Positions 24,262 through 53,928 of a DNA stretch of 64,000 nt are shown here, piece after piece. How positions within the stretch are numbered: position 1 is the stretch's first letter; the number at the start of each line of letters is the position of its first letter. The position numbers were made by a program, and so were the translations under genes. The notes under the pieces were generated by a model. The model made no database searches and had not been told where the DNA came from. It saw only the letters and a list, made by a program, of their open reading frames with translations. The stretch is from Verrucomicrobiota bacterium (GTDB lineage Bacteria; Verrucomicrobiota; Verrucomicrobiia; Limisphaerales; AAA164-E04): the NCBI GenBank assembly GCA_047947115.1, contig CP170459.1:1568001-1632000 (forward strand), written 5' to 3'.

Positions 24262-25881
24262 ATGGGCGGACGAATGTTGCGTGATATTCGCGGCACCATG
24301 GTGATCGCCCTTTTTGGAAGGGTGTGTCACTTCTTTGCTTTTGTTTATGCTGCACGGTGCCTGGGTGATGGGCTTGGGGAATCAACCGAGGCTTTGGGGT
24401 GGGCTCAATACTTGCAGTTTGTGTTAACGTTGGGATTAGACATTGTAGCTGTAAGGCATTTGGCAGCTAAATCGATCAGTTTTGATCAGTTGGTGCCAAG
24501 CGTATTTACCTCAAGGCTTCTAATTTATGGTTTCTGTTCGCTGGTTTGGGTTTTTGGTTTGTTGTGTTTGAAACTTCCTTGGCATGTTTTTCAGCTGTGG
24601 CTCGCCGCTGTGCTGAATTTGTTTACGTTAGGGATGAGTTTTCAATGGGTATTTCAAGGAAAGGAACGCATGCCAGCTTTCACCTTGATACAGGCGTTGA
24701 TATCTGCCTGTATTTTGTGCTGCTTCCTCGTTGGTTTTAGTGTCGGTGATTCACCTCAATTATCCAGAAATGATGTTCGTTTTCCTAATGAAATTGCTTC
24801 TCATTTAAGGGAATCCATCCGACCAGTCGATCAGTGGTTACTGGACCAACTATCAGACGAAACCAAAATCACATTGAATCTTCGTAATGAGGCGGCTTTT
24901 GATGAAGATCAATTTACTAATGCGGTCATTAATGATCTCAATAGAATCATCCAGGGAGATTTGATTGATTCAAGGAATCTTGAAGGAATTCAATTGGATC
25001 CTGTTATCAATGAAATGTTGTTTCAGCAGCCTGTTGGGATGCAGGTTCAAAAATTGAACCGTCAAATTTTGGAGGAAGTGTTTGGAGACAAGATAAGTAA
25101 GATAAACCTTGGTACGAAGGCAGGAGCTGATCTATGGGTCATGGGAATTTGTCAATTGTTGGTCACTACTGGGGCATGGATTTATATTAAAATTTATTAT
25201 CGCGTATCCCTTTATGCTAAAAGGAAGTGGCGTGATATTGGAGTATACATTAATGAAGGATTACCAAATTGGATTTTCGGACTTTTATACAACACTTTGA
25301 TTACAGTAGGAATGTTGAGTTTAAAGAGATTATCGGCCGGCAACGCTCAATTTGCAAACCATGATGACGCTTATGCCACTCTCTATCGCCTGGCGCTAGC
25401 TGTTCATTTTATTTTAGCTTTTATTGGTTCAGTCATTTATACGCGCATTGTTATCTGGAAAAATGAACGTAATGACTTTTTCTTTCGTGTGGCTTTGGTT
25501 TGTTCCGGAGTCATTGTTTGTGGCGTATTGTCCTGTTCCGTGATTCACTGGGTGCATCCCGTCTTGTATCCATTTCTATTTCAGAAAGAGGTGTTTTTGC
25601 CCGCAGCTCCCTACATGTCTTTAATGTTGTTAGGGCGATTTGTTGGGTTAACCAGCGGCATTCTTGTATGGGGTATGTTGGCTTATCACCGTGATTGGCG
25701 CGCTGTGTATTGTGCTATTATTCCAGTTTCAGGATCCGTTTTGTTGCATTTTTTACTCGTTCCTCAATATGGTATGCATGCCGCCGTGTTACTCAATTTG
25801 GGAGGAGAATTAGGACTTTTCTTTTTTTGCCTGATCGGGTTTGTGGGACTTCGTAAATCTGTTCAATTTCGTAGAAAATGA
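24262..25881 (+). CDS. Wzx/MOP-family oligosaccharide flippase with a soluble insertion
   Basis: Many TM segments, YAARCLG, LGLDIVAVR, QWVFQGKERM, LVPQYGMHAAV motifs; start uncertain (24262 or 24274). Confidence 0.7.
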   Translation: MGGRMLRDIRGTMVIALFGRVCHFFAFVYAARCLGDGLGESTEALGWAQYLQFVLTLGLDIVAVRHLAAKSISFDQLVPSVFTSRLLIYGFCSLVWVFGLLCLKLPWHVFQLWLAAVLNLFTLGMSFQWVFQGKERMPAFTLIQALISACILCCFLVGFSVGDSPQLSRNDVRFPNEIASHLRESIRPVDQWLLDQLSDETKITLNLRNEAAFDEDQFTNAVINDLNRIIQGDLIDSRNLEGIQLDPVINEMLFQQPVGMQVQKLNRQILEEVFGDKISKINLGTKAGADLWVMGICQLLVTTGAWIYIKIYYRVSLYAKRKWRDIGVYINEGLPNWIFGLLYNTLITVGMLSLKRLSAGNAQFANHDDAYATLYRLALAVHFILAFIGSVIYTRIVIWKNERNDFFFRVALVCSGVIVCGVLSCSVIHWVHPVLYPFLFQKEVFLPAAPYMSLMLLGRFVGLTSGILVWGMLAYHRDWRAVYCAIIPVSGSVLLHFLLVPQYGMHAAVLLNLGGELGLFFFCLIGFVGLRKSVQFRRK

Positions 25882-35680: not shown

Positions 35681-35697
35681 GGTAGAGCTGCATTTTG

Positions 35698-35980
35698 TTA
35701 GGGACGCGCTGCTGTGCGTCCGCTGTGGCGCCCGACTACGCCATCAACATTCCCACACCCCCAGCGTGCTCGCCGCCCCGCGGCAGCGGGGCCCTACCGG
35801 AGGCGTTAGCTTCTGGGTGGGTAGGGACGTGCTGCTGCGCGTCCGCTGCGGCACCCGACTACGCCATAGACATCCCCACACCCCCAGCGCGTTCGCGGCC
35901 CCGCGGCAGCGGGGCCCTACCGGAGGCGTTAGCTTCTGGGTGGGTGGGGACGTGCTGCTGCGCGTCCGCTGCGGCACCGA
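35698..35980 (+). repeat. Tandem GTAG-REP doublet array (REPIN/BIME-like), about 2.3 units, period 123 bp
   Basis: Units start 35698, 35821, 35944; each has GTAG-GGACG(C/T)GC-TGCT-GCGCGTCC ... GGCCCCGC-GGCA-GCGGGGCC-CTAC (100 bp) plus a 23-bp linker. Confidence 0.88.
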
Positions 35981-36059
35981 TTGAATGATTCAGCTGAAAT
36001 ACAGCTGAATCGACCTTGGCTTGCCTGATTTGAGCGGGTGGGGTAAAGGTGCAGTGCGG

Positions 36060-42744: not shown

Positions 42745-42924
42745 TCAAATATCCGAGGCCTCATGCTAGAATGCCCGATTGCTGGGTCAAGTTATAATAT
42801 CCAGACAACCCCTATCGCCACGCGATTCTTGGGAATATGACAACTTGATTCGACCTTTTGCTCAATAAAAAGTGACCCGGTTCTCGGATTGCCAAATGGT
42901 TCCCGTTCGGGCAGCATGAAGTCC

Positions 42925-43920
42925 ATGAAACGCGTCGTGATAACGGATTACCTGGAACCGCCTGCAAGCATCGAAACGCAAGTGCTCGAAGGTGTGGCCA
43001 ATGTGGAATGTCTTCTTGCCAAAAATACTCAGGAATTGATGGGGGAACTGACGGATGCAGATGGCATCATTCTTTGTCACGAGGTTTCCATTACCCGGGA
43101 AGTTGTTGAGGAATTACATCAGTGCAAGGCGGTTGTAAGATGTGGGGTTGGGTTTGACAACATTGACCGCAAGGCAGCCGGTGAGCGTGGTATTTATGTG
43201 TGCAATGTTCCCGATTACGGTGTGGATGAAGTGGCGGATCACGCCATAGCCATGGCATTGGCATGTAATCGAGGTTTGATCAAAGCCGAACGAACCCTGC
43301 GAAAGGGCTTGCAGCCTTGGGATATGCGATCCATTCAACCTATTTTCCGCGTTGCCGGTGCGACCATGGGAATCATTGGCCTGGGTCGTATTGGGGGCGC
43401 GACTGCGTTGCGTGCAAAAGGATTGCGGATGAATGTTCAGGCTTATGATCCTTACGTGCGGGCTGGAACTGACAAGTTGTTGGGGGTTCCTTTGGTTGGG
43501 CTTGAAGAACTGCTTAAAACCAGTGACATCGTCTCAGTGCATACTCCTTTGACCGAGGAAACCCGAAAACTGATCGATGCTTCCGCCTTGTCCCTCATGA
43601 AATCCACCGCTATCCTGGTCAATACGGCACGCGGAGCTGTGGTGGACACCGACGCTTTGGCTGCGGCGCTCAAAGAAGGGCAGATCGCAGGAGCCGGAAT
43701 CGACGTGCTGCCCGATGAACCCGCCACCTCTGATATGCCCCTGATTCAACTGTGGCAGCAAGACCGGCAACCCCCGGTCAATCTGATGATCACCCCTCAC
43801 ACAGCTTTCTATTCTGATGCCGGCTTGGTGGAAATGCGCGAGAAGGCGGCCCAGGAAATCCGGCGTGTCCTGTCCGGGGAGATGCCCAAGAACTGCGTCA
43901 ATAGAGAATTCCTTCAGTAA
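42925..43920 (+). CDS. D-isomer-specific 2-hydroxyacid dehydrogenase (CtBP-like)
   Basis: GVGFDNID, NVPDYG, GIIGLGRIG, NTARG, TPHTAFYS; start 42925 or 42916. Confidence 0.88.
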   Translation: MKRVVITDYLEPPASIETQVLEGVANVECLLAKNTQELMGELTDADGIILCHEVSITREVVEELHQCKAVVRCGVGFDNIDRKAAGERGIYVCNVPDYGVDEVADHAIAMALACNRGLIKAERTLRKGLQPWDMRSIQPIFRVAGATMGIIGLGRIGGATALRAKGLRMNVQAYDPYVRAGTDKLLGVPLVGLEELLKTSDIVSVHTPLTEETRKLIDASALSLMKSTAILVNTARGAVVDTDALAAALKEGQIAGAGIDVLPDEPATSDMPLIQLWQQDRQPPVNLMITPHTAFYSDAGLVEMREKAAQEIRRVLSGEMPKNCVNREFLQ

Positions 43921-43929
43921 GATGGATTT

Positions 43930-44694
43930 TCAACCTTCCTTCTCGGTGGTGGTACTATTTTGGTAGGTGGAAAGATGAGGCGGTACCAAGTCCTGACGCT
44001 CCAGAAGGGACAGGGCTTGGGTTAACACATCTCGTTGCCCTGCTGGGTCCAGAGGCTTCCCTAGTGCAAACCCATGCGGGAAAGGAACGAGGAGCCCCCG
44101 GGGTGGGCCAACCTTGATGGCGACATCTTTCAGAAACTGGAGAACGACGGTGGTAATCCCTCGTTGTTCCAGGGCTGCTGCTGCCAGACTCACGGTCTGG
44201 TTACACATGGGTCAGACCGGCACCAACAGCACAGCGTCCACACCATCGTCCGCCAGGGCCTCGGAGAATTCCGGCGCTGATCGGGAGGTAAACCGTCCGG
44301 GAGCTGTGATGGATCCCATGAAGGAAAGAAGACGATGATTCAACGCACCAATCCTGCCTTCCGCTTCAAAGGTTCTGAAGTGGTCCAGTGGAAATCCCAG
44401 GTTAGGATCCTGTTCCAGACCGGAATGGTCAAAGGATTGGGAACGATGGGTTTCGATCAGGCTGCCCACATCGCTATCAGTGGGTATCCATCGATAAGAG
44501 GGGTCTCCGCCTTTGACATGGTCATCAAAAGGTTCTTGGTTGGGGAGCACAAAGCCAGCGCTGGAGGCCAAGGCGAACCGGCACTCTGAAAGAGGTTTTT
44601 GCAAAGGGCTCCAAGGGGTTGGGTTGATTTTTCTCCAGGGATAAGCCTTGAGAAAAAGTCGCACACTGAGGGAAAGTTCGCTGGTTTTTGCCAT
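43930..44694 (-). CDS. GrdB/PrdB-family reductase selenoprotein with in-frame UGA (Sec) at 44212-44214
   Basis: ORF-track ORFs 44212..44694 and 43930..44208 are in one frame: ...DAVLLVPV-TGA-PMCNQTVSLAA...; N-terminal half has GrdB-family-like motifs (KPLSECRFALASSAG, GDPSYR.IP, FDH...DPN..FPLD); SECIS-like hairpin follows UGA. Confidence 0.85.
44184..44200 (-). promoter_or_regulatory. Putative bacterial SECIS element
   Basis: mRNA: UGA-CCCAUGUGUAA-CCAGAC-CGUGA-GUCUGG; perfect 6-bp stem, loop begins after 17 nt from UGA with G at loop position 2. Confidence 0.65.
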
Positions 44695-44846
44695 TTTTAG
44701 GAGTTGTAACGTCTTCGATCCATGATAATCTGGATCTCCGCCATTGGTAAGGCAAAGGAAATTTTCACGAAAATTCCTTTACAGGTCGGCCGCGCACACT
44801 ACACTGCGCTGCTTGTTATTTTAGAGGCATTTGCCAAAGAAGTTGT

Positions 44847-52791: not shown

Positions 52792-53601
52792 TTAGATAGA
52801 GCAAAGCTCTTTCATCCGCTCCAACCCAACTTTGATGACTTCCTTGGGATCTTTTGCCCAAAGGTCCTGGTTGAAGAGTTCGAGGCTCATGGCTCCCTGG
52901 TAGCCTTTTTCCCGGAGGATTTGGATTTCGGCTTTGAGGTCGATGACGCCGTCGCCGATCATGACGCGGTCCGGATCGGTCTGGGTGAGGGAGGGTTTGT
53001 CGGGATGGGCATCGTCGATGTGGTAGTGGCTGATTTTTTCCACCGGGATCGCTCTAAGTTCATCCATGGTGGAACCGCTGTTCCAGTTGTGAAAAGCATC
53101 AAGAATCAGGGTCGCATCCGGATGGTTTGTCTTTTGGACGATGTCCCAAGCTTGGGAGAGTTTGTGAATGGATTTGAAAAAGCTGATGTATTCGAAGGTT
53201 GGTTTGATGCCTGTTTGGCGTCCAATTTCAAGTAGGTCGGCATATCTTTCGGGCAACCTGGAAACGTCGCAAGGTTCGATGGGGGGGGTGGCCACGATGT
53301 AGGGGGCTCCGATGCGGGCGCCGAGTTCGAAGCGGCGTTTGGCTTCGTCGAGCACGAGTTTGTATTCCCATCCCTCCATTTCGCCCCATTGACGAATGGC
53401 TATGCAACTGGGGACAATAAGACCGTAATCTTTCAAGGCTTTTTCGACATCGGAAATCTCACCGCCCTGGCCAACGTGTTCGTAGAGATCATTGATCCAT
53501 AGTTCGACGCCATCATAGCCAACTTCACCGGCGAGTTGGATTTTCTTGAGCAAGGGTTGGGGTTTGATCGTGCTGGTGTTGAGACAAAGTTTTGGGTTCA
53601 T
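52792..53601 (-). CDS. Sugar phosphate isomerase/epimerase (AP endonuclease 2 TIM barrel)
   Basis: CLNTSTI, GYDGVELW, TFEY, LDAFH, HYHIDD, DRVMIGDG, SLELFN metal ligands. Confidence 0.85.
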   Translation of the reverse strand: MNPKLCLNTSTIKPQPLLKKIQLAGEVGYDGVELWINDLYEHVGQGGEISDVEKALKDYGLIVPSCIAIRQWGEMEGWEYKLVLDEAKRRFELGARIGAPYIVATPPIEPCDVSRLPERYADLLEIGRQTGIKPTFEYISFFKSIHKLSQAWDIVQKTNHPDATLILDAFHNWNSGSTMDELRAIPVEKISHYHIDDAHPDKPSLTQTDPDRVMIGDGVIDLKAEIQILREKGYQGAMSLELFNQDLWAKDPKEVIKVGLERMKELCSI

Positions 53602-53637
53602 GAGTTTTTGGTATTTATTTGAAAATAGGATTGCCAG

Positions 53638-53870
53638 GTAGGGTCTCCCGACAAGTCGGGACTGCGGGGCCGAGAGCGCGTTGGAAATGTGTGGAAGCCT
53701 GCTGCGAGTGCGGACACGTCGGCAGACGCGCGGCAGCGCATCCCTACCAAGCCAGGGGCTGTCGCCTCCGGTAGGGCCCCGCTGCTGCGGGGCCGAGAGC
53801 GCGTTGGAAATGTGGGGAAGTCTGCTGCGAGTGCGGACACGTCGGCGGACGCGCGGCAGCGCGTCCCTAC
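53638..53870 (-). repeat. Second tandem GTAG-REP doublet array (same family as 35698-35980, opposite orientation)
   Basis: GTAG at 53638 and 53771, CTAC ending at 53747 and 53870; 100-bp unit plus 23-bp linker whose reverse complement CGGAGGCGACAGCCCCTGGCTTG resembles CGGAGGCGTTAGCTTCTGGGTGG. Confidence 0.88.
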
Positions 53871-53928
53871 CATGCGAGAGTGTTGATCAGTGAGGATATT
53901 GATTTTTCCTAAAATCATTTCAACACGA

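Follow-up and report, generated by a model that had tools for sequence, protein, structure and literature searches.

A PrdB-like gene with an in-frame UGA probably read as selenocysteine, and without a detected partner subunit, in a Verrucomicrobiota genome

Two described systems resemble the protein analysed here. D-proline reductase PrdB (Clostridioides difficile, TIGR04483) is likewise a single domain of ~240–250 amino acids, with a UxxC motif in the same place and shared core motifs. In the Prd reaction, as given in the accessible text of PMC11229817, D-proline is bound by the pyruvoyl group of PrdA and its α-carbon is attacked by the selenocysteine (Sec) of PrdB; activity requires PrdA, PrdH and Sec, and the PrdB U151C variant is inactive. 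GrdB, GrdF and GrdH (TIGR01917, NF040794 and NF040795) also use a Sec nucleophile and share a homologous C-terminal domain (E = 1e-11 to 7e-15), but the GrdB-type models span 431–435 positions with an extra N-terminal half, against 254 amino acids here, and GrdB carries UxxCxxC and needs GrdE, GrdA and GrdC. Betaine- and fluoroacetate-type protein B complexes without a pyruvoyl group have been described, and even in the pyruvoyl-free GrdI and FarE systems the B selenoprotein is accompanied by a PrdA/GrdE-family subunit (PMC10838667, available portions). Because the B selenoprotein pairs with such a subunit there, partner-free catalysis would be without precedent in the systems described in that text.

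The family itself is known and has been counted in selenoprotein surveys since 2005. In the Sargasso Sea, "Proline reductase PrdB" with UxxC ranked third in abundance among selenoprotein families (42 sequences, compared with 1 GrdA; PMC1088965, 2005), the GOS survey counted 235 "PrdB" sequences, given in its Table 2 as UxxC and pfam07355 (PMC2398784, 2008), five "PrdB" sequences without GrdA or GrdB were reported from the delta-1 symbiont of Olavius (PMC1976440, 2007), and a "PrdB" selenoprotein was listed in Anaeromyxobacter and Geobacter (PMC1794560). In their accessible sections, the Sargasso, GOS and Olavius surveys name the family after proline reductase without separating stand-alone clades, and two reviews (PMC9312934 and PMC13188914) handle it as D-proline reductase only. 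A literature search, with most subscription papers outside its reach, found no study characterising a stand-alone form. The survey "PrdB" and the protein described below are alike in PF07355, in UxxC, in UGA with a SECIS element, and in their aquatic abundance where GrdA is nearly absent, and the gene fits the survey category (PrdB homology, UxxC and UGA/SECIS). One member of its clade (L092) came from an Olavius Delta 1 genome, through which the clade would overlap with the survey sequences.

The gene lies at 43930–44694 on the minus strand of the window, meaning the whole 64,000-nucleotide stretch that was analysed. The initial annotation had joined two adjacent ORFs, 44212–44694 (160 amino acids) and 43930–44208 (92 amino acids), into one reading frame, and translation bore this out: minus-strand 44694–43930 is a single 254-codon frame, broken solely by a TGA at 44214–44212 and terminated by the TGA at 43932–43930. 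With the internal TGA read as U, the product contains LLVPV-U161-PMC164-NQTV, the U-P-M-C motif (U161 and C164) being encoded at 44203–44214. ORF callers had placed the start of a spurious second gene at the ATG of Met163 (44206–44208, minus strand). The PrdB-like gene is divergent from rpsO, and a weak sigma-70-like promoter match (9/12, by consensus match alone) lies upstream of it at 44722–44750 on the minus strand; contigs from the RNA libraries X5 and X10 stop at 44685 and 44691, a weak hint of a promoter. A convergent D-2-hydroxyacid dehydrogenase identified by profile match (42889–43920, plus strand) probably stands outside the system.

For the Sec column, 287 relatives were confirmed in GTDB genomes and the best 80 of the 287 loci were compared. 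The codon was TGA in 79 and TGC in 1, in taxa labelled as Verrucomicrobiota, Acidobacteriota, Thermodesulfobacteriota, Planctomycetota, Myxococcota, Binatia, Gemmatimonadota, Nitrospirota and others. The frame stayed open for 82–100 codons past the TGA in 77/79 TGA loci, the exceptions being L086, where the Cys position carries a second TGA, and an L047 copy cut by its contig end; codon +3 after the TGA encoded Cys in 78 of the 79 and was TGA in the other. Among the best 120 of 1,666 protein homologues, 102 (one being the window's own) stop right before the Sec column, and the 18 full-length homologues have Cys (16), Trp (1) or Gly (1) at this position, of which the Trp and Gly entries are probably calls made under other codes. 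The check at the DNA level covered one Cys form, L063. The frame is conserved on both sides of the column, and the alignment across it, named as supporting evidence in the initial annotation, was continuous. The TGA was spanned by contigs of three public runs, X1 (DNA) and X5 and X10 (RNA libraries), with no other letter, and the TGA is no assembly error; X5 and X10 may stem from a single campaign, and the source sample itself could be X1. The gene was covered by contigs of the RNA libraries X5, X10 and X17, which as contigs cannot show transcription or its level. Records holding the stretch were mostly estuary, marsh, seawater or aquatic metagenomes, and the nearest named records were Verrucomicrobiota at 87% identity.

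A perfect 6-bp hairpin 3′ of the UGA, also part of the initial annotation, was present at 44184–44200 on the minus strand (CCAGAC-CGUGA-GUCUGG, with G second in the loop) as the apical hairpin of a SECIS element. By itself it is weak evidence: its energy relative to shuffles gave z = −0.8 to −1.3, and a loose hairpin rule fired at 2,481 of 48,647 (5.1%) open-frame TGAs genome-wide. Because hairpin energy alone was unremarkable (z ~ −1, 5.1% chance rate), it was dropped as stand-alone evidence, and conservation and covariation were used instead. The covariation set comprised the window and 53 of the 79 TGA loci, picked for spread. In this set 96.8% of hairpin cells were paired, compared with 18%–35% in slid controls, and five of the seven pairs had double-sided changes, for example A-U (26) and G-C (25) at one pair and C-G (38) and U-A (9) at another, so that compensatory changes have preserved the hairpin. 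The loop G and U were invariant in 76/76 distinct sequences. Serine at codon +8 was encoded by AGY in 34/34 cases, versus 316/1,007 elsewhere in the gene, and leucine at codon +9 by CTG in 75/79 cases, versus 819/2,008 elsewhere in the gene; by these counts, synonymous codons at the hairpin (+8 and +9) are under constraint. In the TGC locus the hairpin was lost.

Selenocysteine machinery was found elsewhere in the same genome, as had been proposed for checking: selA, selB adjoining selA, selD with its own TGA, and tRNA-Sec, all above curated cut-offs. In 50 of the 80 carrier genomes, mostly incomplete MAGs, selA was present in 44 of 49 TGA carriers and none was found in the single TGC carrier. 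The PrdB-like gene is patchy within the family, occurring in 6/7 genomes of genus g1, 3/3 of g2 and 0/11 of g3, and selA was present in 10 of the 11 g3 genomes, all of which lack the gene; the PrdB-like gene is accessory and stands outside the Sec machinery. Recoding of the in-frame UGA, the central proposal of the initial annotation, is supported by the column, the covarying SECIS hairpin and the Sec machinery, and from sequence comparison the UGA is almost certainly read as Sec161.

Profile searches placed the protein in Pfam PF07355 (GRDB) at 44.1 bits against a cut-off of 22. On TIGR04483 (PrdB) it scored 121.7 bits over residues 23–233, across the TGA, against an equivalog cut-off of 300, compared with 453 bits for the true PrdB P0255 and 117–127 bits for natural Cys homologues; on the GrdB, GrdF and GrdH models (about 430 amino acids, versus 254) it scored 44–55 bits against cut-offs of 602–800. 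The GrdB/PrdB family assignment of the initial annotation therefore held for PF07355 membership and failed for identity with PrdB or GrdB, and by curated cut-offs the protein is a PrdB-like orphan outside both equivalogs. It also differs from PrdB in the motif itself (GG-C-GT-C-HR in P0255, PV-U-PM-C-NQ here), in its N-terminal arm, in its apparently separate clade, and in that PrdA is normally encoded in the same operon as PrdB and was not found in this genome. PF07355 was represented by one gene only in the genome. A search of 50% clusters returned 1,530 relatives, many in other PrdB-like groups, and the ESM Atlas returned GRDB/PrdB clusters and nothing else.

A quick tree of 96 rows with one PrdB row, which omitted six long rows that were chimeric or partial as well as every match <225 amino acids, placed the protein in a 28-row clade (SH-aLRT 98) together with GTDB relatives and CPMC Cys forms scattered within it; P0255 and the full-length GrdB L108 fell outside. 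Core residues common with P0255 were G47, F56, D64, R68, I70, D89, D96, N98, P102, M126, G127, R199 and G208, and a clade-specific N-terminal arm carried invariant F14, Y18, W20, R21 and W28. The AlphaFold model (pLDDT 90, pTM 0.90) predicted an α/β/α fold with U161 between strand 154–158 and helix 162–176, at the start of the helix. Solved relatives were found neither by sequence nor by Foldseek at E ≤ 0.001; the best VIA-align match (Z = 8.8, rmsd 4.8 over 140 residues) was among LacI, SDR and peptidase α/β sandwiches, a common arrangement that yields no function and no proof of a new fold.

Several relatives were unusual. Seventeen proteins of 380–420 amino acids (P0138, P0141, P0151 and 14 others) formed a sister clade in which the PrdB-like domain is followed by a C-terminal domain of ~150 amino acids, conserved, helical-looking and without a Pfam match in those scanned; no separate gene for this domain turned up in the window's genome or in the loci. 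The Verrucomicrobia relative L086 (1917–1928, plus strand) had TGA at both motif positions (U-P-M-U) and the same hairpin; this may be a UxxU variant with two Sec residues, or a mistake in a single MAG. One Binatia contig held two TGA-bearing gene copies ~4.2 kb apart (L047:7466 and L047:11649, plus strand). A complete Desulfobacterales genome (G087) contained three TGA-bearing PrdB-like genes from three clades (L110, L113 and L115), and PF09338 was not found in it. Loci L048, L063 and L076 were labelled Bifidobacterium/Bifidobacteriaceae and Akkermansia, their sequences match Verrucomicrobia or environmental carriers, and the post-TGA sequence of L076 is the same as that of Pedosphaera L055; these are probably mislabelled MAGs.

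Searches for partner subunits used PF09338 for PrdA/GrdE, which gave 0 matches in the window's genome (one contig, 95.8% complete) and none among 125 flanking ORFs. In 1 of 50 carrier genomes PF09338 matched a gene adjoining a separate full-length GrdB, and this match doubles as the positive control of the search. Profile searches for GrdA (PF04723; 0 in the genome and 0/50 carriers) and for the UGSC family (0 in the genome) had no such control. Orphan status, as initially proposed, was thereby upheld, and the gene content suggests that the product very probably acts on its own, without a pyruvoyl partner subunit.

For neighborhoods, 851 ORFs were clustered and Pfam was run on 125 of 143 flanking ORFs, the ORFs having been picked by length, which is unreliable in GC-rich loci; within this scope no operon was shared across phyla. 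Weak recurrences were cyclophilin upstream in 4/80 loci (two phyla), Fur in 2, and α/β-hydrolase(-OsmC) in Desulfobacterales. The cyclophilin-type PPIase gene precedes the PrdB-like gene on the same strand in L067, L085, L102 and L105 (Brocadia and Thermoanaerobaculia), and MsrB directly follows in L067. The convergent dehydrogenase, for which a possible link had been left open, adjoins the gene in 9/80 loci, all close kin, eight of them with pnp and eight with carA; because it stands beside the gene in close kin only, together with pnp and carA, the arrangement reflects synteny and the two are probably unlinked.

The best reading of these data is a partner-free, two-electron UxxC small-molecule reductase with PrdB-like chemistry, a full mechanism in which our confidence is evenly divided. 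The conserved column, the SECIS, the lack of PrdA/GrdE matches and of an operon common to several phyla, the apparently separate clade and the core residues of P0255 favor it, as do the betaine- and fluoroacetate-type protein B complexes that do without a pyruvoyl group, whereas the GrdE-like subunit kept even by those complexes counts against it; conserved neighbors, fusions of >434 amino acids (none found with P0003 as query, a weak negative) and a solved relative, any of which might have given a clue to the substrate, were lacking. In this mechanism, SelB–tRNA-Sec, steered by the hairpin, would insert Sec161, and the selenolate, positioned where helix 162–176 begins, would attack a substrate held in a pocket that, judging from the alignment, would be formed by motifs common with true PrdB (G47, F56, D64, R68, D89, D96, N98, P102 and M126-G127). 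Cys164 would then resolve the adduct, releasing the reduced product and leaving an Se–S bond, to be re-reduced by a general thiol or thioredoxin-type system. The N-terminal arm (F14, Y18, W20, R21 and W28) may serve as a lid in place of a partner subunit. With no PrdA available for Schiff-base formation, activation would have to come from the substrate itself, and without PrdA the D-proline reaction in its known form is impossible for this protein.

The strongest competitor to the small-molecule reductase is a general thiol-disulfide or peroxide oxidoreductase of redox housekeeping, a real selenoprotein using the U-P-M-C pair alone, which we consider rather unlikely. The pair may presumably be likened to glutaredoxin- or DsbA-type CPxC enzymes, the model places UxxC where a helix begins, just past a strand, Cys variants arise inside the clade, and several UxxC selenoprotein candidates with a thioredoxin fold are encoded in the genome. 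Scattered redox neighbors also occur (MsrB in L067, hydrolase-OsmC in L062, Fur in L041 and L069, nitroreductase in L045 and FMN reductase in L086), but each is limited to one lineage or two loci, and the N-terminal 160 residues, distant in sequence from UxxC, keep family-wide motifs that would be needless for a bare redox pair. PrdB is placed among thiol-dependent redox selenoproteins in Table 3 of PMC1088965, in its accessible part. Natural Cys forms at several places in the clade, set against the inactive PrdB U151C, suggest that ordinary thiol redox fits better than C–N cleavage. A bolder version of the small-molecule reductase, in which the clade is a single-subunit, pyruvoyl-free selenoenzyme of many phyla, marine Verrucomicrobiota included, that cleaves self-activated C–N+, C–S+ or C–halogen bonds (betaine-, DMSP- or organohalide-type), is a long shot; if it were true, a top-seven marine selenoprotein family mislabelled "proline reductase" would be an unrecognised route of osmolyte or organohalide turnover.

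A Se–Cys pair binds soft metals, and U161/C164 might accordingly serve in binding or detoxification of soft metals or metalloids (Hg, As or Cu) or in Se/S transfer, with no organic turnover. Single neighbors point that way (ZIP transporter in L046 and L053, DUF3641 radical SAM in L083, Fur in L041 and L069), but neither the 125 flanking ORFs nor the neighbor clusters contained a recurring metal-resistance operon, and this function appears improbable.

That the protein is a genuine D-proline (or glycine-type) reductase subunit, with a partner that has diverged too far or was overlooked, is very improbable, and largely refuted. TIGR04483 PrdB is the best curated match, many homologues are named PrdB by JGI, and a proline-racemase-family gene is present in the genome; against this, the score of 121.7 bits falls far below the cut-off of 300 (453 for P0255), PF09338 was not found in the single-contig genome (95.8% complete) and occurred in 1/50 carriers, and the accessible text of PMC11229817 gives both PrdA and PrdH as required for activity. 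The racemase-family gene lies between two ORFs that by inspection are DHDPS-like and FAD amino-acid-oxidase-like, a cluster that looks like hydroxyproline catabolism.

Readings in which the TGA is a genuine stop codon (of two small genes or of a pseudogene), arises from misassembly, or encodes Trp under a UGA=Trp code are scarcely credible: databases list the gene halves separately, single homologues carry W and G at the Sec column, and UGA=Trp has been reported in some Verrucomicrobiota (PMC13462651, available text), but the same codon occupies the same column across many phyla and the frame to either side of it is intact, the contigs of three runs agree, and a UGA=Trp code is excluded because TGA is an ordinary stop in this genome, closing 988 of 2,004 long ORFs (pnp and lpxC included), with Trp encoded by TGG and tRNA-Sec the sole tRNA with a TCA anticodon.

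For the genome itself, the analysis corrects the annotation, one Sec gene replacing two fragments, and the same split-gene error affects 102/120 of the best database homologues. Because a PrdA/GrdE-family gene was found in only 1/50 carrier genomes, part of the environmental "PrdB" cannot be D-proline reductase, and inferring Stickland proline reduction from such PrdB matches would be a mistake. What this abundant orphan branch does is easy to test, given its natural Cys forms and its tight clade.

Further UxxC selenoprotein candidates in the genome (loci L116–L120) had their TGA at 25240 (plus strand) and at 3793083, 5420377, 3457302 and 1762526 (minus strand); three were AhpC/TSA-Redoxin, one was Thioredoxin_7/PDZ, and one, with W-U-G-T-C, had no Pfam match at 1e-4. 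Three near-identical frames ~1.3 kb apart (C1:5354847, 5356134 and 5357427, minus strand) had a TGA in the same context and are probably an antisense frame of a repeat protein. Within the window, short repeats with near-duplicate peptide text in intergenic ORFs were seen at 35695–35988 and 53600–53900 and look like REP-type repeats.
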